A DNA stretch of 32,000 nt from Delftia acidovorans NBRC 14950 (GTDB lineage Bacteria > Pseudomonadota > Gammaproteobacteria > Burkholderiales > Burkholderiaceae_C): positions 300,001 through 332,000 of the forward strand of contig NZ_BCZP01000005.1 of the NCBI RefSeq assembly GCF_001598795.1. The letters run 5' to 3'. This document shows, piece after piece, positions 4,056 to 27,746 of this stretch (the stretch's first letter is position 1; each line of letters opens with the position of its first letter). The notes under the pieces are model-generated. The model was not told the origin of the DNA. It worked only from the letters and a program-made list of their open reading frames with translations, and did not search any database. The position numbers and the translations under genes were made by a program.

Positions 4056-5066
4056 ATGCCAAGCACCGACTCAGACCCCGGCTCCATCACCCGCGTACAG
4101 GGCATCGAGGTAGGCCACCACACCGATGCCCGCCGGCCCACGGGCTGCACCGTCGTGCTGGCGCGCGGCGGCGCCGTGGGGGGCTGCGATGTGCGTGGCG
4201 CCGCCCCCGGCACGCGCGAGACCGACCTGCTGCATCCTTCCAACCTGGTGCAGCAGGTGCATGCCGTCATGCTCTCGGGCGGCAGCGCATGGGGGCTGGA
4301 CGCTGCCAGCGGCGCCATGCGCTGGCTGGATGAGCAGGGCATAGGGCTGGATGTGGGCGTGGGCCGCGTGCCCATCGTGCCGGCCGCCGTGCTGTTCGAC
4401 CTGGCGGTGGGCGACAGCCGCATCCGCCCGGGTGCCGATGCCGGCCATGCGGCCTGCCAGGCCGCCAGCGCCGCGCGGCCTGCCGAGGGCAATGTGGGCG
4501 CCGGCATGGGCGCCTGCGTGGGCAAGGTCTTCGGCATGGATCGCGCCATGAAGGGTGGCATTGGCACGGCCTCGCTCACCGTGCATGGCGTCACCGTGGG
4601 CGCGCTGATCGCCTGCAATGCCGTGGGCGATGTGGTCGACCCCCACAGCGGCGCGCTGCTGGCCGGCGCGCGCAGCCCCGATGGCCGCCAGCTGCACGAC
4701 ACCTGCCGTGCCCTGCTGCGCGGCGAAGAGCCCCGGCCGCTGCTGGCAGGCACCAACACCACCATCGGCGTGATTGCCACCGATGCACGCATCACCAAGG
4801 TCCAGGCCCAGCGCCTGGCCGTGGTGTCCCATGACGGCCTGGCACGCGCCATACGCCCCGTGCACACCATGAGCGATGGCGACACATTGTTCGCCCTGGG
4901 CACGGGTCTGGCCGAGCACTCGCTGGGCATGCTGACCCTGTCTGCCATGGCCGCTGAGGCCGTGGCCCTGGCCACGGTGCGTGCCGTGCTGGCCGCGCAG
5001 TCGCTGACCACGGCCGAAGGGCTGGAGCTGCCCTGTGCCAGGGAGCTGGCCGCCTGCCGGCCCTGA
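4056..5066 (+). CDS. P1 (S58/DmpA) family aminopeptidase
   Basis: VQGIEVGHHTD...TGCTVVL, GGCDVRGAAPGTRETDLL, and the autoproteolytic GTNTTIGVIATDA block followed by SHDGLARAIRPVHTMSDGDTLFAL. These motifs are typical of DmpA/ornithine acetyltransferase-fold peptidases. Confidence 0.8.
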   Translation: MPSTDSDPGSITRVQGIEVGHHTDARRPTGCTVVLARGGAVGGCDVRGAAPGTRETDLLHPSNLVQQVHAVMLSGGSAWGLDAASGAMRWLDEQGIGLDVGVGRVPIVPAAVLFDLAVGDSRIRPGADAGHAACQAASAARPAEGNVGAGMGACVGKVFGMDRAMKGGIGTASLTVHGVTVGALIACNAVGDVVDPHSGALLAGARSPDGRQLHDTCRALLRGEEPRPLLAGTNTTIGVIATDARITKVQAQRLAVVSHDGLARAIRPVHTMSDGDTLFALGTGLAEHSLGMLTLSAMAAEAVALATVRAVLAAQSLTTAEGLELPCARELAACRP

Positions 5067-14869: not shown

Positions 14870-14946
14870 CTGCCCGTAGCTCAACCGGATAGAGCAATTG
14901 CCTTCTAAGCAATAGGTCGGGGGTTCGAGTCCCTCCGGGCAGGCCA
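14870..14946 (+). tRNA. tRNA-Arg (anticodon UCU)
   Basis: Hand-folded cloverleaf of 77 nt: acceptor CTGCCCG/CGGGCAG, D arm GCTC-AACCGGATA-GAGC, anticodon arm ATTGC-CTTCTAA-GCAAT, T arm GGGGG-TTCGAGT-CCCTC, discriminator G, encoded CCA. Confidence 0.95.
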
Positions 14947-15374: not shown

Positions 15375-16277
15375 TCAGTCTTCGTCCAGCGCCTCAAACC
15401 GCTCTGCCAGGAAATCCAGCAGCGCCCGCACGGCCGGCAGCAGCCCGCGCCGCGAGGCGAACACCGCATGGATGATCTCGCGCCGTGGCGCCCAGCCCGG
15501 GATGACGTGGACCAGTTCACCGCGCGCGATCTGCTCGCGCACCATCATCGAGGGCAGTTGCACCACGCCCACCCCCGCCAAGGCCGCCGCGCGCAGCGCC
15601 AGCATGCCGCGCGTGACCAGGCGCGGCCGGTGGCGGATGGCCGCCTGCGTGCCGTCCGGGCCGATCAGGTGCCACACATGCTCGTGCTGCGGCAGGCCCA
15701 GGTCCATGCTCGGCAGGCCTGCCAGGTCGGCGGGCACCTGGGGGATGCCGCCTGTCAACAGCTGCGGGCAGGCCACCAGACATTGCCCGCGCTCGGCGAG
15801 CATGCGCATCACCAGGTCGCTGTCCTCCAGCGGCGGCGGGCGCACGCGGATGGCAACGTCGATTCCTTCGCCCACCACGTCCACGCGGCGGTTGGTTTCC
15901 TCGAGGTGGATCTCCACGCGCGGGTACGCGGCCATGAAGGCCGCCAGCATGTCGGCGATGCGCGCATCGAGCAGCGCCACCGGGCAGGTCATGCGCACGA
16001 TGCCACGCGGCTCGGCGTGGGTCAGCGCGATGGCCTCGTCGGCGGCGTCGGCCTCCACCAGCATCGCCTTGCAGTGGCCATAGTAGGTCTGGCCGGTCTC
16101 GGTGACGGCAAATCGCCGCGTGGAGCGCTGGATCAGGCGCGTGCCGAGACGCTCCTCCAGCTGCGCAATGCGACGGCTCAGCTTGGATTTGGGCATCCCC
16201 AGCGCGCGGCCCGCGGGCGCAAAGCCGCCGTGGTCCACCACCTGCACGTAGTAGTAGAGGTCGTTCAGGTCTTTCAT
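15375..16277 (-). CDS. LysR-family transcriptional regulator
   Basis: N-terminal wHTH MKDLNDLYYYVQVVDHGGFAPAGRALGMPKSKLSRRIAQLEERLGTRLIQRSTRRFAVTETG and a typical LTTR effector domain. It is divergent from the hydrolase pair. Confidence 0.9.
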   Translation of the reverse strand: MKDLNDLYYYVQVVDHGGFAPAGRALGMPKSKLSRRIAQLEERLGTRLIQRSTRRFAVTETGQTYYGHCKAMLVEADAADEAIALTHAEPRGIVRMTCPVALLDARIADMLAAFMAAYPRVEIHLEETNRRVDVVGEGIDVAIRVRPPPLEDSDLVMRMLAERGQCLVACPQLLTGGIPQVPADLAGLPSMDLGLPQHEHVWHLIGPDGTQAAIRHRPRLVTRGMLALRAAALAGVGVVQLPSMMVREQIARGELVHVIPGWAPRREIIHAVFASRRGLLPAVRALLDFLAERFEALDED

Positions 16278-16409: not shown

Positions 16410-17036
16410 ATGACCAAGCCCTACGTCCGCCTGGACAAGGACAACGCCGCCGTGCTGCTGGTAGACCACCAGACCGGCCTGCTATCCCTTGTACGCGACA
16501 TCGACCCGGACAAGTTCAAGAACAACGTGCTGGCGCTGGCCGACATCGCCAGCTATTTCAAGCTGCCCACCATCCTGACGACCAGCTTCGAGAACGGCCC
16601 CAACGGACCGCTGGTGCCGGAGCTCAAGAGCCAGTTTCCCCAGGCGCCCTACATCGCCCGGCCCGGCAACATCAACGCCTGGGACAACGAGGACTTCGTC
16701 AAGGCCGTGAAGGCCACGGGCAAGAAGCAACTCATCATCGCCGGCGTGGTGACCGAGGTGTGCGTGGCCTTCCCCGCACTGTCGGCCATCGAGGAGGGCT
16801 TCGACGTCTTCGTGATCACTGACGCCTCCGGCACCTTCAACCCCATCACCCGCGATGCGGCGTGGAATCGCATGTCGCAGGCCGGCGTGCAACTGATGAG
16901 CTGGTTCGGCGCTGCCTGCGAACTGCACCGCGACTGGCGCAACGACGTGCAGGGGCTGGGCACTCTGTTTTCCAACCACATCCCCGACTACCGCAACCTG
17001 ATCACGAGCCACACCATGCTCACCCAGGGCAATTGA
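16410..17036 (+). CDS. Isochorismatase-family (YcaC-like) cysteine hydrolase
   Basis: AAVLLVDHQTGL (catalytic Asp context) and INAWDNEDFVKAVKATGKKQLIIAGVVTEVCVAFPALSA (Lys and nucleophile Cys). AAGGAG lies upstream of ATG 16410. Confidence 0.85.
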   Translation: MTKPYVRLDKDNAAVLLVDHQTGLLSLVRDIDPDKFKNNVLALADIASYFKLPTILTTSFENGPNGPLVPELKSQFPQAPYIARPGNINAWDNEDFVKAVKATGKKQLIIAGVVTEVCVAFPALSAIEEGFDVFVITDASGTFNPITRDAAWNRMSQAGVQLMSWFGAACELHRDWRNDVQGLGTLFSNHIPDYRNLITSHTMLTQGN

Positions 17037-17046
17037 GGAGAAGACC

Positions 17047-17736
17047 GTGAGCACACCCCAAACCATCGCCAACTTCAACGGCGCCCGCCCGGTCATCGAT
17101 CCCGACAATGTGGCAATGCTGCTGATCGACCATCAAAGCGGCCTGTTCCAGACCATCAAGGACATGCCCTTCACCGAGGTGCGTGCCAATGCCACCACAC
17201 TCGCCAAGGTAGCGACACTGGCGAAGATCCCTGTCATCACCACCGCATCGGTGCCGCAGGGTCCGAACGGCCCCTTGATCCCCGAGATCCACCAGTACGC
17301 CCCGCATGCCCGGTACGTTGCGCGCAAGGGCGAGATCAACGCCTGGGACAACCCGGAGTTCGTCGCTGCCGTCAAGGCCACTGGGCGCAGGCAGCTCATC
17401 ATCGCGGGGACGATCACCAGCGTCTGCATGGCCTTTCCCAGCATCGCCGCAGTGCACGAGGGCTACCAGGTCTTCGCGGTGATCGACGCCTCGGGGACCT
17501 ACTCGAAAATGGCGCAGGAGATCACGCTGGCGCGCATCGTGCAGGCTGGTGTCGTGCCGATGGACACGGCGGCGGTGTGCTCGGAGGTGCAAAAGACCTG
17601 GAACCGTGAGGACGCGTTGCAGTGGGCGCAGGCCTACAGCGCAGTCTTCCCGCCGTACCAGTTGCTGATCGAAAGCTACTCCAAGGCGCAGGAAGTGGCC
17701 AGGAACGGTGAGCAGCTGGATTCGCAACGCACCTGA
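17047..17736 (+). CDS. Isochorismatase-family (YcaC-like) cysteine hydrolase, paralog of the upstream gene
   Basis: GTG start at 17047, preceded by GAGGAGAAG. VAMLLIDHQSGLF and INAWDNPEFVAAVKATGRRQLIIAGTITSVCMAFPSIAA. It lies 10 nt after the stop of the previous gene. Confidence 0.85.
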   Translation: MSTPQTIANFNGARPVIDPDNVAMLLIDHQSGLFQTIKDMPFTEVRANATTLAKVATLAKIPVITTASVPQGPNGPLIPEIHQYAPHARYVARKGEINAWDNPEFVAAVKATGRRQLIIAGTITSVCMAFPSIAAVHEGYQVFAVIDASGTYSKMAQEITLARIVQAGVVPMDTAAVCSEVQKTWNREDALQWAQAYSAVFPPYQLLIESYSKAQEVARNGEQLDSQRT

Positions 17737-17770
17737 CTGCGGTAGCACGGCACGGGTACGAGGCCGCTTG

Positions 17771-18057
17771 CCCAGGCCAGGGGCAGAAGTCATTACACTT
17801 GTCGCCAAGCCGAAAGGCCCGGTGTGTCGAAGCACCTTACCAGTAGCGTTTGCGACCCCCAACGTCAAGCGGGGTTCTGTCATGCCCGAATTCCTGAGGC
17901 GGACGTGCCTGTGCACGCCCCTTCCAACGGTTTTGGGCGGGATGGGGCTCTCCGTGAGGACGCCCGCACGGCTACTGACGTGCTTCGAACATCCCGTCCA
18001 CCCGTCTCGTGTCGAAGCGGTGCGGGTGGCTTCCTTGAATCCAGTAGGAGCCAAGCG
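17771..18057 (+). promoter_or_regulatory. Candidate structured 5' leader / cis-regulatory RNA, copy 1
   Basis: An invariant 59-nt block containing a GCC-GAAA-GGC hairpin (17809-17818). Conserved hairpins at 17854-17876, 17898-17923 and 17998-18029. A TTCCT/AGGAG helix (18031-18050) that sequesters the SD. No reading frame is conserved between the two copies. Confidence 0.45.
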
Positions 18058-18498
18058 ATGACCGCATCTTCACCCGCTTCCCAACCACCCCCTTCCCTCA
18101 CCACTCGCCAAGCGGGAAAAGCCAAGGCTTGCCGCAGGCATCGCAGGACCCACTGCACCATGCAGACCGCGCTGGCCTTCATGCAGCGATCCCTGGAATT
18201 CCTGGTGCGCGTGGCAGGCGAACACGACAACGCCAACTACGACGACGACGGCACCGATGCCGATGTGGAACTGGCCGTGGAACTGGCGCTGGAGCACATC
18301 AGGCGCCTGCGCGCAGCGGAGCCCATGGAGCGCGAGGCCTTCGCCCAACACTGGAACATGGCGGCGGCCGCTATCCGGCTGGGGGCGCTTGCCTACGGCC
18401 GCACCGACAGCACCTACTACCGCATGCTGAGCTTTGTGCAGCAGCAGTTCGACGTATCGGCGGCCATGGTGGAATTTGTGGATGAGGCGCAGGACTGA
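18058..18498 (+). CDS. Hypothetical small protein (146 aa; basic Cys/His N-terminus plus acidic helical body), copy 1
   Basis: AGGAG 7 nt before ATG 18058. High GC3 from codon ~35 onward. Near-identical paralog 880 nt downstream. I recognise no family. Confidence 0.7.
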   Translation: MTASSPASQPPPSLTTRQAGKAKACRRHRRTHCTMQTALAFMQRSLEFLVRVAGEHDNANYDDDGTDADVELAVELALEHIRRLRAAEPMEREAFAQHWNMAAAAIRLGALAYGRTDSTYYRMLSFVQQQFDVSAAMVEFVDEAQD

Positions 18499-18519
18499 GA
18501 CCCCGGCCCCGGGTGGCGC

Positions 18520-18672
18520 TCAGCGCCAGCAGTCCTCCACCGTTCCCAAGGGCGAGGGCGAGATGCCTTCCTGCTTGAAGCCGCATGTCCAGGGCCGGAT
18601 GGCGCGCCGGCACCTCGCGAGTGTGTCAGCCGGACTGCAGGCTTGCGGCGTCTCCCAGGCCAGGGGCAGAAG
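18520..18672 (-). pseudogene. Fossil 3' end of a pilE-like pilin gene (no start codon, no N-terminal pilin domain)
   Basis: The minus-strand frame reads ...CGFKQEGISPSPLGTVEDCWR*, versus the intact PilE C-terminus ...LGVKGISPLGTVGDCWR*. The frame is open for only 50 codons, contains no Met, and is closed upstream by a stop at 18673-18675. Confidence 0.6.
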
Positions 18673-18937
18673 TCATTACACTTGTCGCCAAGCCGAAAGG
18701 CCCGGTGTGTCGTAACACCTATCTGGAGAGGTTGCAGCCCCCACCTTCAAGCGGGGTTTTGTCATGCCCAAATTTAAGAGGCTGGTGCGCCCGTGCGCGC
18801 CAGCCTGCATGGTTTCGGGCGAGATGGGCCTACCCGCGAGGATGGCCGCACGGCTCCGGACGTGTTACGAACATCTCGTCCACCCGTCGCCCTTCGTAAG
18901 GCAGCGTGTGGTGCTCAATGAGCCCGGAGCAAGAACC
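18654..18937 (+). promoter_or_regulatory. Candidate structured 5' leader / cis-regulatory RNA, copy 2
   Basis: Same 59-nt block (18654-18712). Hairpins at 18736-18758, 18780-18805 (11 bp) and 18880-18911. A TGCTC/GAGCA helix (18912-18931) that sequesters the GGAG SD. Confidence 0.45.
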
Positions 18938-19378
18938 ATGACCGCATCTTCACCCGCTTCCCGACCACCCCCTTCCCTCACCACTCGCCAAGCGGGAAAA
19001 GCCAAGGCTTGCCGCAGGCATCGCAGGACCCACTGCACCATGCGGACCGCGCTGGCCTTCATGCAGCGATCCCTGGAATTCCTGGTGCGCGTGGCAGGCG
19101 AACACGACAACGCCAACTACGACGACGACGGCACCGATGCCGATGTGGAGCTGGCCGTGGAACTGGCGCTGGAGCACATCAGGCGCCTGCGCGCAGCGGG
19201 GCCCATGGAGCGCGAGGCCTTCACCCAACACTGGAGCATGGCGGCGGCCGCCATTCGGCTGGGGGCGCTTGCCTACGGCCGCACCGACAGCACCTACTAC
19301 CGCATGCTGGGCTTTGTGCAGCAGCAGTTCGAGGTGTCGGCGGCCATGGTGGAATTTGTGGATGAGGCGCAGGACTGA
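18938..19378 (+). CDS. Hypothetical small protein (146 aa), copy 2
   Basis: GGAG 8 nt before ATG 18938. It has 7 amino-acid differences from copy 1. It is convergent with pilE, with a 20-nt gap between the two stops. Confidence 0.7.
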   Translation: MTASSPASRPPPSLTTRQAGKAKACRRHRRTHCTMRTALAFMQRSLEFLVRVAGEHDNANYDDDGTDADVELAVELALEHIRRLRAAGPMEREAFTQHWSMAAAAIRLGALAYGRTDSTYYRMLGFVQQQFEVSAAMVEFVDEAQD

Positions 19379-19398
19379 GACCCCGGCCCCGGTGGCGC

Positions 19399-19812
19399 TC
19401 AGCGCCAGCAGTCCCCCACCGTTCCCAGGGGCGAGATGCCCTTCACGCCCAGGGCGTTCAGGGTGTAGTCGCCGCAGCGCCTGTCCGATGCCTGGCGGCC
19501 TGTGCGCGTGGCCTTGAGCGTGTAGCCGCCGTCATTGGCGGTCGTGGCCATCGTCAGGGTGTAGTGGCCGTTCTCGGACTTGTCTCCCCAGGGCAGCCTG
19601 AGGTTGGCGACGGAGCTTGTGTAGCCGCCGTTCTGGGCCCGCCAGCGCTCCTGCCGGGCGGCGGCCTCGCCCAGCAGGCTTTGCGCTTCCACGCGCCGCG
19701 ATCGCAGCACGTATTCCTGGTAGGAGGGGTAGGCGATCGCCGAAAGAATGGCGACCACCGCCACCGTGATCATCAGCTCGATCAGCGTGAATCCATGTAG
19801 CTTGCTGCGCAC
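19399..19812 (-). CDS. pilE: Type IV minor pilin PilE
   Basis: GTG start at 19812, preceded by AAGGAG. Prepilin N-terminus (V)RSKLHGFTLIELMITVAVVAILSAIAYPSYQEYVLRSRRVEAQ...AAARQERW closely parallels P. aeruginosa PilE. C-terminal Cys pair. Confidence 0.9.
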   Translation of the reverse strand: MRSKLHGFTLIELMITVAVVAILSAIAYPSYQEYVLRSRRVEAQSLLGEAAARQERWRAQNGGYTSSVANLRLPWGDKSENGHYTLTMATTANDGGYTLKATRTGRQASDRRCGDYTLNALGVKGISPLGTVGDCWR

Positions 19813-19892
19813 GCATTTCTCCTTGGGGGCCCGCAGGGCCAGCCAGACGGCCGGGGCCGGCAGGCCCCTGTGTGTAGTGGATGGGATGGCGG

Positions 19893-22800
19893 TCACGGGT
19901 TCGCTGGCTGGCGGCGCCAGCTCTGTCGCCCCCGGTCCACTCCGCTGTTGATATCGTCGCCCCCGGTCTTGACTGGGTCTCCCGCCCCGCTTTGCTTTCC
20001 GCTGGAGTCGAAGATCTTCGCGCCGCTGATGGTGGGCCTGCCCGGCCCCACCTCGCGGCCGTTGACCTGCTGGCCTGCCAGGTTGTCGGAGGCGTTGAAG
20101 ATGCCGTCGCCGTTCACATCGAAGGCGACATAGTCGGTCTTGCCCCCGGTGTCGGGATCGATGGCGTAGATCGTGCTGGCCAGGCCTGCGGAGCAGGGGT
20201 CGCCCAGCGGTGGCCGGATGGAGGTGAACACCAGACCCCGCCCGTACAGGCTCATGTCGTAGACCAGTCTTTCTCCATCGCGCGGCAGATCGACGTACCA
20301 GCCCCAGCTGTGCACATTGGAGTCGGCGGTGCTGGTGGCGTCCTTGTACCAGGTGACCGGGTTGGCCGACAGGGCGAACTTGCCCGGAAAGCCGCTCACC
20401 TGGGTGAACTGCTGGGCCTGCAGATCCCCGCGCCCCTTGCCGGCGGTAGGCAGCGGCTGCGGCGCAGTCGTGGCGGGTGTGCCGTAGCGATCCCAGATAC
20501 CGAACACCGATTGCCGGCGCATGTCCAGCTTGTCGTCATCCGTCATGAAGCGGCCCGTGCCGAAGGCCACCACATCGCCCTTGCCGCTGGAGTGCCGCAC
20601 CACGTAGGGTGCGGTGGTGATGGACAGCCGCTTGCCGCCGCTGCGTTCGGACTCACGTGCCACAAAGAACAGTTGCGCATTCCATGAGCCGCTGGCACCA
20701 CTGGCCAGGTCTACGCGCCATACATTGCCCGCAAGATCACCGGCATAGGCCACGTCCACCTTGCCATCGCCGTTGTTGTCCACCACGGCGGCGCGCGACA
20801 GGCCGTTTTTCGGCGCAGGCAGCGCGCTCAGCTCTGCGGCCGTCATGCCTGCCGCGAAATCAAAGCGCCGGATGACCTCGCCACTGGAGACATCCAGCAC
20901 AAACAGGCTGGACTCGCCGGAGGCGCTGTTCGACGCCTGGTAGCCATTGGACAGGAATACCACCCACCTGCCCTTGGACCGGCCGGCATCGTTGAGCCGC
21001 GCAACGACAGGCGCGGGCATCGAGTAACCCATGCGTTCGTCCTGTTCAACCCCGAACTCCCACAGCAACCGGGGGGAGGTGGGGTCCGTGACGTCCAGCG
21101 CAAAGACCTGCCGCCCGCCCGCACCCAGGCTGCCGACCAGCACCCTGTGCCAGGCGTTGCCGAAGTAGACATCCGAGACCACGGGCGTCCCGTCCACGAA
21201 GTAGCGGTGGGGAGCGCCGCCCGCGCCATACCGGGACGCCAGGACATTGAGCGAATCCTTCACGCCCGATGGAATGAAGGCGAACTCCTCCTTGCCCGAT
21301 GCCGCGTCGAAGGCGTGCAGCATGCCGTCGTTGGCGCCCACATACAGCATCTCCTTGGTCGCCTGTTTCGCGGCAAAGGCGGCATAGGTGGTGCTGCCCT
21401 CCAGCTTGTCCGCGGCAGAGGCGCGGTACAGGCCGCCCTTGACCCGTACCAGCGAGGAATTGACGATATCGCCCAGCACATTGGGCTTTCCACTGTCCAG
21501 GGGCTTGCGCACGCGCAAGTCATCGCGCACCTCGCCACGCAGGAACTCGATGCGCTTTTTTGCCTGGCCATCGGCGGAGTTCGTGGCCGGGTCCGTGTTG
21601 AGCACGGCCAGCCAGGACGCATCGGAGCGCTGCCCGCTGAGACTGGAGTACGTGAAAGGGCTCAGCGACACGGCACTGCCGGTCCTGCTGGGATAGTAGA
21701 TCTTGCGGTCATCGGCGGACCGCGCCGACAGGAGTTCCGCCGCGCTCCACACCAGCGTTCTGTCGCTGGTGGTGAGCTTCTCGCGGATGACATCGCCGCT
21801 CCAGTACTGGACCTCGAACGTGGTCCGGTACAGGTCGGCGCCTTCGCCCAGTGTCGCAGTGGGCATGTCCACGCTGACCGCCGTCACGGAACTGATGCTC
21901 TGCAGGATGTCGTTGAACGCCTTGGTCAATTGGTCCTTGAGCGTGCCGGCATTGGTCACCAGAAAATAGTTGTCCGGATCTCCCGTGATCTTGGAGGGGT
22001 CGCGGTCCGGCACACCGTACTTGGCGGCATACCACAGCGGTCCCTTCAGGAAGCTGCCCGCGTCGGTCGCATTGCCGGGAGTGAAGCTGCGGGTGGCCGT
22101 GAGTCCCAGGTTCGTGCATTCCGTGCGCTGCTGGGCCGAGATGCTGCCCCGGCAGTAGCCCGGATCGCGATTGGGTGGCGTGTTGTAGGCGTAGTAGGCC
22201 GAGGCCGTGTCCTTGTCACGCACCTCCAGGTACATGCCGTCCTTGGTGGTGCCCGAGATCACATAGCCCATGTGCTGTCCCAGGCCGCCAGCGGCGTATT
22301 CGGACACCATGTCGATCTTCACCTTGCCATCGGCCTGCAGCGCGACCGTGTAGCGCGCGATGGCGTCCATGTCATGGTCGGCGCCCTGCTCCACGTCCTC
22401 GTAGTTGATGCGGAACTCCGCATAGGGCCGCCCGCCATTGACCGAGGCATCGATGTCCGCCTTGCCCGTGTTGGCAATGTTGACCACGTAGTAGTCGACG
22501 ATCTGGTTGGTCGGCGTGAAGACCGCATTGTTCACGGTGCTGCCGCCGGCACTGCCGGAGACGGTCTTGGCAAACGGCGCAATGGTCACAAAGCGTTTGC
22601 CGCCGATCGGAAAGCGTATTTCCGGCAGCGGTGACGCAATGGCCACGGAGTAGGTCCTCAGCGCATTCTTGCCCTGGCTGTTGCCGAACATGGCATTCCT
22701 GGCGCCGAAACGGGCCACACCGGCGGCATAGTAGGTGCCTTCCTTGCTGGGCTCCTCGGGAGACAGGCCGCGCGCCCAGGACAGGTCTGCAATGGTCTTG

Positions 22801-27338: not shown

Positions 27339-27415
27339 TGGGGTGGCTGATGGGGCTCGAACCCACGACAACAGGAATCACAATCCTGGACTCTACCAAC
27401 TGAGCTACAGCCACC
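27339..27415 (-). tRNA. tRNA-His (anticodon GUG), copy 1
   Basis: The reverse complement folds as G(-1)+GTGGCTG acceptor, D arm GCTC-AGTTGGTA-GAGT, anticodon arm CAGGA-TTGTGAT-TCCTG, T arm GTGGG-TTCGAGC-CCCAT (G.U at the outer pair), discriminator C and CCA. TATAAT (27429-27434 on the minus strand) lies 13 nt upstream. Confidence 0.95.
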
Positions 27416-27669: not shown

Positions 27670-27746
27670 TGGGGTGGCTGATGGGGCTCGAACCCACGAC
27701 AACAGGAATCACAATCCTGGACTCTACCAACTGAGCTACAGCCACC
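27670..27746 (-). tRNA. tRNA-His (anticodon GUG), copy 2
   Basis: Sequence identical to copy 1. TAGAAT (27760-27765 on the minus strand) lies 13 nt upstream. Confidence 0.95.

Follow-up and report, generated by a model that had tools for sequence, protein, structure and literature searches.

The window analysed here is a stretch of 32,000 nucleotides (nt) from Delftia acidovorans NBRC 14950 (NCBI RefSeq assembly GCF_001598795.1, contig NZ_BCZP01000005.1, positions 300,001 to 332,000 of the forward strand), and coordinates refer to it unless another sequence is named. It contains a tandem repeat of ~883 bp (17771-18653 and 18654 to ~19430), each unit of which consists of a non-coding stretch of 284-287 nt followed by a 146-codon open reading frame (ORF), here designated ORF-B. 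Each of the two non-coding stretches is likely to be a self-targeting antisense control leader of the P4/P1 immunity kind, in which the antisense RNA is encoded within the leader itself. Both copies carry the same parts in the same order and with the same structure: a -10 box, a hairpin (H1), a second hairpin presenting a target box (H2/b1), a further target box (a1), a pseudoknot with a U-run, a GC-rich hairpin, a three-way junction, a third box-presenting hairpin (H5/b2), a box running into the Shine-Dalgarno (SD) sequence (a2/SD) and the ATG of ORF-B. Two variable boxes in the junction, a' and b', show a three-way covariation with a1/b1 and a2/b2.

Covariation and specificity of the proposed antisense boxes

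An initial annotation of this DNA, which described the region as a candidate structured leader RNA of a new type, had overlooked both the central three-way junction, ~70 nt in size, and the two target-box sets to which it is complementary. In the family of relatives gathered here (94 distinct leaders), variation within the junction is greatest in the boxes a' and b', and each covaries with two distant sites. For the 5' set (a'-a1 plus b'-b1), 91.9% of cells were paired and covariation reached 0.713, as against 0.174 after shuffling; for the 3' set (a'-a2 plus b'-b2), the corresponding values were 92.5%, 0.732 and 0.175. Shuffled controls overstate significance since the sequences are related, and under the fairer slid controls, which gave at most 0.16 for either set, the result stays clear. 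Considered singly, pairing extended over 89.3% (a'-a1), 95.5% (b'-b1), 95% (a'-a2) and 90.2% (b'-b2) of cells, with changes on both sides at seven of eight a'-a1 pairs and five of six a'-a2 pairs, and most variable box positions show four or five pair types. Boxes that vary in this manner and covary with two distant targets bear the signature of antisense specificity determinants, not of a ligand pocket. Complementarity of the boxes to an upstream and a downstream target set, as in P4, was thus found in the family and in both copies in the window.

The family contains 42 variants of a' and 30 of b' in 76 combinations, and the boxes reassort, 16 of the 42 a' variants having been seen with more than one b'. 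Predicted duplexes were stronger between cognate than between non-cognate partners, with means of -20.8 versus -8.8 kcal/mol for the 5' boxes and -17.4 versus -10.8 kcal/mol for the 3' boxes. In each window copy, a1, b1, a2 and b2 match that copy's own a' and b', and cross pairing between the copies is weak at the 5' boxes; the copy 1 a', for example, is predicted to form a duplex of -12.2 kcal/mol with its own a1 but of only -2.0 kcal/mol with that of copy 2. Copies 1 and 2 are largely orthogonal because they carry different specificity boxes. Likewise, the flanks of the two leaders are alike and the middle differs (71.5% identity between leaders overall, 95% between the ORF proteins) because the middle carries the specificity boxes and their partners.

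At the 3' end, the downstream target lies at the ribosome-binding site of the first ORF, as in C4-type systems. In most members, AGGAG contributes its A and first G to the a'-a2 duplex, and in copy 2 all of GGAG is included, in support of the earlier proposal that RNA pairing targets the ribosome-binding site.

Leader architecture

The coordinates of all parts are collected in Table 1. The initial annotation had pointed out that the first 59 nt of the two copies are identical, and this identity indeed ends exactly at both edges of the 59-mer. Because the RNA appears to start ~7 nt past the -10 box, the 59-mer would comprise ~35 nt of promoter and the first 24 nt of RNA; conservation across the family begins only at CAAGCC (17806). 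A (TGn)TAnAnT motif is present 5-6 nt upstream of CAAGCC in 87 relatives, with its conserved positions filled by A in 66/87, A in 67/87 and T in 72/87, and the upstream G in 61/87. On this pattern, the RNA 5' end of copy 1 is predicted at about 17806-17808. Simple promoter and terminator scans of 17600-19600 called nothing.

Table 1. Positions of leader parts and neighbouring genes in the window
Feature	Copy 1 (or single position)	Copy 2	Strand	Remarks
Leader overall	17771-18057	18654-18937	+	287 nt and 284 nt; same parts in both
Invariant 59-mer	17771-17829	18654-18712	+	~35 nt promoter DNA plus first ~24 nt of RNA (H1, 5' half of H2), as predicted
-10 box TACACT	17794-17799	18677-18682	+	(TGn)TAnAnT motif
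H1, GNRA hairpin GCC-GAAA-GGC	17809-17818	18692-18701	+	
H2 GGUG[..]CACC	17821-17836	18704-18719	+	Loop is target box b1 (UCGAAG in copy 1)
Target box a1	17840-17848	18722-18731	+	Copy 1 CCAGUAGCG, complementary to a' loop
Pseudoknot, terminator-like end	17848-17881	18730-18763	+	NGGU:ACCN within CCCC/GGGG loop; U-rich run after
Variable GC-rich hairpin	17898-17923	18780-18805	+	Dispensable
Three-way junction	17935-18003	18817-18885	+	R1 85.7 bits at 17933-18004; 84.2 bits at 18815-18886
a', hairpin-2 loop	17971-17978	18853-18860	+	GCUACUGA; GCUCCGGA
b'	17983-17989	18865-18871	+	CUUCGAA; UUACGAA
H5 CCACC..GGUGG plus inner stem	17998-18029	18880-18911	+	Loop is target box b2 (UCGAAG in copy 1)
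Target box a2 into SD	18041-18050	18923-18931	+	Copy 1 CCAGUAGGAG
ORF-B	18058-18498	18938-19378	+	146 amino acids; copies differ by 7 non-synonymous and 4 synonymous changes
tRNA-Arg(TCT) gene	14870-14946		+	~2.8 kb upstream of duplicated module
LysR-type regulator gene	15375-16277		-	Divergent from isochorismatase-family pair
Isochorismatase-family genes, adjacent pair	16410-17036, 17047-17736		+	
Pilin gene	19399-19896		-	Convergent; C-terminal end reads GISPLGTVGDCWR*

All the helices drawn in the initial annotation were recovered: the H1 hairpin, the CCCC/GGGG helix (17854-17876 and 18736-18758), the GC-rich hairpin, the CCACCCG/CGGGTGG helix (strands at 17998 and 18023, with CGTGTGG at 18905 in copy 2) and the anti-SD/SD helices (TTCCT..AGGAG, 18031-18050; TGCTC..GAGCA, 18912-18931). 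Its broader view of the region as non-coding and structured, under selection at the RNA level and with structure kept despite sequence change, is supported as well. One proposal, the extension of H1 by CGCC/GGTG and ACA/TGT pairs, found no support: the ACA is part of the -10 box or adjoins it, and the partner of GGUG is the CACC downstream, with which it forms H2.

Across the family, H1 shows changes on both sides at all four pairs (GAUC/GAUC, UGCA/UGCA, GGC/GCC and CCCC/GGGG), and the H2 stem is retained, with the variants GACG/CGUC and GAUG/CAUC. The pseudoknot core of the 5' module is almost invariant, and two of the pseudoknot pairs covary (alignment columns 50-70: CG 50, AU 30, UA 3; columns 54-68: GC 87, UA 6); the CCCC/GGGG helix is invariant throughout but was itself within the search pattern. 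The GC-rich hairpin is free in sequence and length; L020, L034 and L081 lack it, and L015, L044 and L085 have it twice.

The junction has a closing stem of 9-10 bp (in copy 1, GGGCGGGAUG/CAUCCCGUCC), a GNRA-capped hairpin 1, a hairpin 2 of the form GCACG..CGUG whose 8-nt loop is a', a single-stranded segment that contains b', and a CACCC tail. Changes on both sides were seen at six of nine closing-stem pairs and at every pair of hairpin 1, and a covariance model of the junction built here (R1, 22 base pairs) recognizes both copies. The stem is followed by ACC, each position of which is conserved in at least 85 of the 94 leaders, giving what looks like the shape of an RNase P substrate. Further downstream, the inner stem of H5 shows changes on both sides at six of six pairs. 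The local hairpin that the initial annotation had drawn over the SD exists in both copies, whereas family-wide it rises only weakly above background, with a mean probability of 0.87 that the SD is paired versus 0.73 in the control.

For the cis helices, assessed on a MAFFT alignment fitted to no structure, pairing reached 85.8% and covariation 0.225. Shuffling gave 0.101, none of 500 shuffles attaining the observed value, and sliding the 3' partners gave no more than 0.07. Both leaders fold more stably than their shuffled counterparts (z = -2.9 and -3.5), and the minimum-energy fold of copy 2 joins the stretch with b1/a1 to that with a'/b', in line with the antisense reading. The GNRA loops, together with G-U pairs that are frequent (41/94 at one closing-stem pair), point to an RNA made from the + strand. 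Among the leader types suggested earlier, that of a leader targeted by a small RNA comes closest; riboswitch and RNA thermometer are not indicated, and no Rfam riboswitch matched the window region. The Rfam check proposed at that time left the region without any match at gathering score.

The proposed mechanism, in which each copy would head a small operon, would proceed as follows. From a start inside the 59-mer, ~7 nt past the -10 box, the first ~75 nt of transcript would present b1 in a hairpin loop together with the adjacent a1, and would then enter the pseudoknot and U-run. The ~70-nt junction RNA, exposing a' and b' and ending in an acceptor-like stem plus ACC (the substrate shape of CI and c4 for RNase P), is probably excised and accumulates. 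Pairing of this RNA with a2/b2 would block translation of the ORF, and pairing with a1/b1 on nascent transcripts would favour early termination; alternatively, a1/b1 may act as a decoy for the junction RNA. In either case, specificity would be set by the variable boxes.

Relatives of the leader

Using a 21-base pattern of the 5' hairpins, the whole ~250-nt leader was found in Malikia, Comamonas, Simplicispira and Delftia and in metagenome-assembled genomes of a Bosea and of a member of Pseudomonadota, each time before a different small ORF; this pattern had no matches among viral contigs. A pattern of the pseudoknot matched 110 metagenome stretches and one viral contig (L013), and BLASTN of leader plus ORF against 72,556 plasmids returned no match. 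Two of eight genome matches (L006 and L012) and one metagenome match (L083) were discarded as chance matches. After these and the duplicates had been removed, the 94 leaders came from Comamonadaceae genomes (Malikia, Comamonas, Simplicispira and Delftia), the alphaproteobacterial Bosea metagenome-assembled genome, and metagenomes.

Among 100 complete first ORFs after the leaders, 72 belong to one family, and the genes that follow the small ORF are replication genes (PriCT_2-Toprim-DUF927, Phage_GPA, DUF3987 and DnaB). In L010, from Simplicispira, a tRNA gene and int-alpA RNA (RF02996, 43.3 bits) occur at 2736-2822 and 4280-4360, with the leader ~2 kb downstream; integrative islands usually have such an arrangement at their left end. 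Given these replication genes and the upstream tRNA and int-alpA RNA of L010, the relatives' leaders lie on integrative mobile elements.

When 100 related loci were searched for tandem arrays, each proved to hold a single copy, whereas the window has two with different boxes. Copy 2 shares its junction at 100% identity with L002 and L003, with the ORFs differing at 41% of synonymous sites, and copy 1 has L103 as its nearest distinct relative; the tandem pair is thus a mosaic produced by recombination or gene conversion. More generally, in the four loci that encode ORF homologs (L001-L004), a leader of the copy 2 type is nearly unchanged but the ORF is only 68% identical.

ORF-B and the surrounding locus

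The N-terminal tail of ORF-B is basic, and the protein is predicted to form a four-helix bundle (AlphaFold2; predicted local distance difference test, pLDDT, 80) and looks soluble. It had no Pfam or PHROG match, and a Foldseek search of the model against PDB and BFVD returned nothing at an expectation value (E) below 0.001. Protein searches gave only four clusters, both named ones being from Delftia, and relatives of ORF-B adjoin pilin genes in other Delftia-like contigs. Deposited homologs are annotated from Met35 (106-116 amino acids), that is, 34 codons late (18058-18159 and 18938-19039). Indels in the N-terminal part come in multiples of three, and the ratio of non-synonymous to synonymous substitution rates is 0.3-0.4, which indicates that the long form is a real gene. 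The indels, lying upstream of Met35, suggest that the true start is the ATG right after the SD targeted by a'.

One Delftia-like locus, L001 (5807-5910), has lost ~165 nt of the leader, namely the variable hairpin, the three-way junction and H5, and retains the 5' module, the SD and an intact ORF-B; its 5' boxes are of the copy 2 type and its SD-side box is of the copy 1 type.

The tandem unit is preceded by the tRNA-Arg gene, the LysR-type regulator gene and the two isochorismatase-family genes, and is followed on the opposite strand by a ComP/PilE-type pilin gene and a PilY1-like gene. The tRNA-Arg(TCT) gene is a possible old integration site. The spacer 3' of ORF-B copy 1 holds, at 18520-18567 on the - strand, a fragment reading GISPSPLGTVEDCWR*, which resembles the C-terminal end of the pilin; the duplicated unit has thus taken in the 3' end of the pilin gene. 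Elsewhere in the window, two tRNA-His(GTG) genes lie 331 nt apart on the - strand (27339-27414 and 27670-27745).

Weighing the interpretation

Several observations weigh against an antisense immunity leader. The setting in the window is not that of a mobile element: replication and integrase genes are absent, and the leaders precede only ORF-B, a Delftia-restricted orphan beside pilin genes. The U-run element is no canonical intrinsic terminator and is not called by a simple terminator scan. The boxes discriminate less strictly at the SD than at the 5' end; the copy 2 a' loop, GGCUCCGGA, has a predicted duplex with the copy 1 SD too (-14.1 kcal/mol), and cross pairing is less clean there because this loop contains the anti-SD CUCC. 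Two recombinant leaders, L072 (369-617) and L106 (1100-1356), have a2/b2 that match their own a'/b' and a1/b1 of another specificity that do not, from which it follows that the 5' boxes need not match in cis. As the family was gathered with patterns of the 5' module, conservation of that module is partly by construction. The Rfam models C4, isrK and c4-a1b1 gave no match (E up to 10 in the window region and up to 1 in eight related loci), nor does the R1 junction model detect P4 CI; homology to P4 and P1 consequently rests on architecture, not on score. Finally, the start site, the processing, the action in trans and the direction of regulation are features that we infer, the last of them by analogy with P4 and P1.

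Among the alternatives, a purely cis-acting switch is unlikely. Here, a'/b' would toggle between a1/b1, leaving the SD free, and a2/b2, blocking it, as set by a ligand, temperature or a protein, and no RNA acting in trans would be processed out. Complementarity of a'/b' to both box sets on one transcript is what such a switch would need, the minimum-energy fold of copy 2 does pair the b1/a1 stretch with the a'/b' stretch in cis, and the almost invariant 5' pseudoknot core would fit; moreover, the published IsrK case includes cis refolding of the long isoform (PMC4825925). However, a ligand pocket leaves unexplained both the 42 x 30 modularly shuffling box variants and the recombinants with mismatched 5' boxes, no Rfam riboswitch matches, and the junction is shaped like CI and c4, which are excised as RNase P substrates (PMC5499578). 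A type I-like toxin-antitoxin or addiction module, with a harmful ORF-B and the junction RNA as antitoxin, could explain chromosomal retention, and the module is indeed retained at the same locus in several Delftia-like sequences. The P1 c4 and P4 CI RNAs lie upstream of toxic genes, icd and kil. In Xanthomonas cassettes, sRNA-Xcc1, a small RNA family discussed below, precedes symE, a toxin gene (bioRxiv 10.1101/2025.06.18.660453). Nonetheless, we regard this explanation as improbable: the loss of the whole junction (~165 nt) from L001, which keeps an intact ORF-B, argues against a strict toxin-antitoxin pair, and ORF-B, a soluble-looking four-helix bundle, resembles no known toxin in Pfam, PHROG or Foldseek searches.

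Two other explanations have very little to recommend them. If the middle region encoded a small protein from the ATG at 17882 and 18764, conservation would reflect coding. This frame is common to copies 1 and 2 over ~170 nt, most of the region, so that the statement in the initial annotation that they share no reading frame was inaccurate; it overlaps ORF-B through ATGA in copy 1 and runs into ORF-B in copy 2. Yet the start is ACG in 53 of the 94 relatives, lengths up to the ORF start divide 41/30/23 among the three residues modulo 3, the region is open in frame in only 21/94, L003 and L008 carry a 1-nt indel that shifts the frame and leaves the downstream nucleotides identical, and the product has no Pfam match, which together make a coding origin scarcely credible. 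It is just as hard to sustain that the structure is one of single-stranded DNA (a priming signal, an origin or a single-strand promoter). Relatives do adjoin primase and replication genes, but the frequent G-U pairs of the + strand would be C-A mismatches on the other strand, and GNRA tetraloops, a -10 box at a fixed distance and a target box at the SD of the next ORF all speak for RNA. An integron attC site and a diversity-generating retroelement were considered and dropped: integrase and reverse transcriptase are absent among the flanking genes checked, and the differences between copies are not confined to adenines.

A further idea concerns the role of the tandem pair, which, instead of a decayed remnant of a mobile element, might be an array of orthogonal immunity RNAs kept by the host to silence in trans the early or replication operons of incoming integrative elements or satellites with matching boxes, a form of RNA-based exclusion, ORF-B being a reporter-like or effector passenger. 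The five tandem sRNA-Xcc1 homologs of a Xylella island (PMC12189769) would be in keeping with such an array. The copy 2 a'/b' boxes are predicted to bind the SD region of a Malikia element (L005) at least as strongly as their own target (-28.9 versus -22.6 kcal/mol, both boxes), and a defence role for IsrK-C4-like systems has been suggested earlier (PMC3632133); even so, we give the idea little credence at present.

Significance

If the leaders are antisense control leaders as proposed, the P4/P1 type of immunity leader extends to mobile elements of Burkholderiales-type hosts, in a family that is common in metagenomes and invisible to current Rfam models at gathering scores. With at least 76 combinations, the family is a rich natural collection of orthogonal two-box specificities, which should be useful for studying the evolution of RNA-RNA specificity and as a source of orthogonal regulators. 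For annotation, the same reading accounts for the conservation seen ahead of an orphan gene that is poorly annotated.

Comparison with known systems

The order of parts in the Delftia leader is that of the P4 immunity leader (IsrK/seqA, CI/C4, seqC), so that the new class envisaged in the initial annotation is not supported. Read directly, P4 presents b1/seqA in a hairpin loop, then a1, a terminator, CI, b2/seqC in a hairpin loop, and a2 over the SD. Its CI RNA (74.9 bits with Rfam C4, RF01695; gathering score 45 bits) is a three-way junction with a' in the hairpin-2 loop and b'/seqB in the 3' junction, as in Delftia. The C4 architecture as a whole, comprising a closing stem, a tetraloop hairpin, a large-loop hairpin, a single-stranded 3' junction and a CCaCC tail, is found in the Delftia leader. 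In P4, seqA sits in the hairpin loop where the Rfam isrK and c4-a1b1 models match and is followed by a second box, UUCACAGGC; the CI hairpin-2 loop, UAUCCUGUGAA, is complementary to this box and to UUCACAGGAGG at the SD. P4 (L124) accordingly has a second complementary set besides seqA/B/C, at 8651-8643, 8471-8450 and 8384-8374, in which the hairpin-2 loop pairs with UUCACAGG twice, once upstream, past seqA (-11.3 kcal/mol), and once at the SD that precedes the first ORF (-13.5 kcal/mol); P4 duplex energies are similar to those in Delftia, at -9 to -13.5 kcal/mol.

The two systems also differ. The closing stem has 9-10 bp in the Delftia leader family as against 17 bp in the C4 consensus; in place of a clean terminator hairpin, the 5' stop element consists of a pseudoknot and a U-run; the Delftia leader has an additional variable hairpin; and the hosts are Burkholderiales rather than Enterobacterales. 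The primase/helicase gene alpha lies downstream in P4, and genes of this kind follow the leaders of the relatives; there the leader stands before the replication genes of integrative elements, whereas in the window only ORF-B follows, between the isochorismatase-family genes and the pilin gene. P4 CI is processed from an untranslated leader and pairs with seqA and seqC, leading to premature termination (PMC4825925). Such an arrangement has been called the IsrK-C4 immunity system, similar ones being present in P1, P7 and N15 (PMC3632133), and both CI and c4 are RNase P substrates (PMC5499578). IsrK of Gifsy-1 (RF01394) is a functional analogue of the 5' module without a model match in the Delftia region: neither the model match expected of isrK/c4-a1b1 (RF01394, RF03163) nor, in a simple scan, the intrinsic terminator was seen, and analogous boxes and the pseudoknot/U-run are present. 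IsrK is a short 5' RNA with target-like boxes that ends at a stop signal, and a read-through isoform carries the downstream genes (PMC4825925). Because the short RNA of Gifsy-1 activates translation (PMC4825925), the direction of regulation in the Delftia leader should not be assumed.

The order in P1 immI is a1b1, c4, a2b2, like that of the Delftia leader. Citron and Schuster, in 1990, reportedly described c4 of P1 and P7 as a two-box antisense RNA co-transcribed between two copies of its target, the downstream copy being at the ribosome-binding site of the first small ORF. Downstream of the leaders, the Delftia window has no antirepressor gene. The c4 antisense RNA family of P1 and P7 is on record (PMC2864571; PMC3632133).

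The only Rfam family to match the junction was sRNA-Xcc1 (RF02221), end to end and at relaxed thresholds, with every score below the gathering score of 53 bits (copy 1, 30.3 bits at 17936-18006; L009, 34.6; L011, 31.7; copy 2, no match). The 88-nt sRNA-Xcc1 RNA (PMC2996969) resembles the Delftia leader in its three-way junction and CaCCC tail and differs in having a U-run after the closing stem, where the Delftia leader has H5. It lies upstream of, and co-directional with, a small gene, either symE or, in APSE phages, one for an ORF6N protein (PMC12189769; bioRxiv 10.1101/2025.06.18.660453, 10.1101/2020.03.17.996009), and five tandem homologs occur in a Xylella island (PMC12189769). In the literature, sRNA-Xcc1 is a trans-acting virulence small RNA and not a c4-type regulator; the comparison suggests that it belongs to the same kind as the Delftia leader, in which case it would probably control the gene just downstream of itself. 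The consensus structures of C4, sRNA-Xcc1 and the Delftia family share one architecture and the CaCCC tail, and the leader is accordingly best filed as a new, diverged member of the c4/CI kind that stands outside the Rfam families C4, isrK, c4-a1b1 and sRNA-Xcc1.

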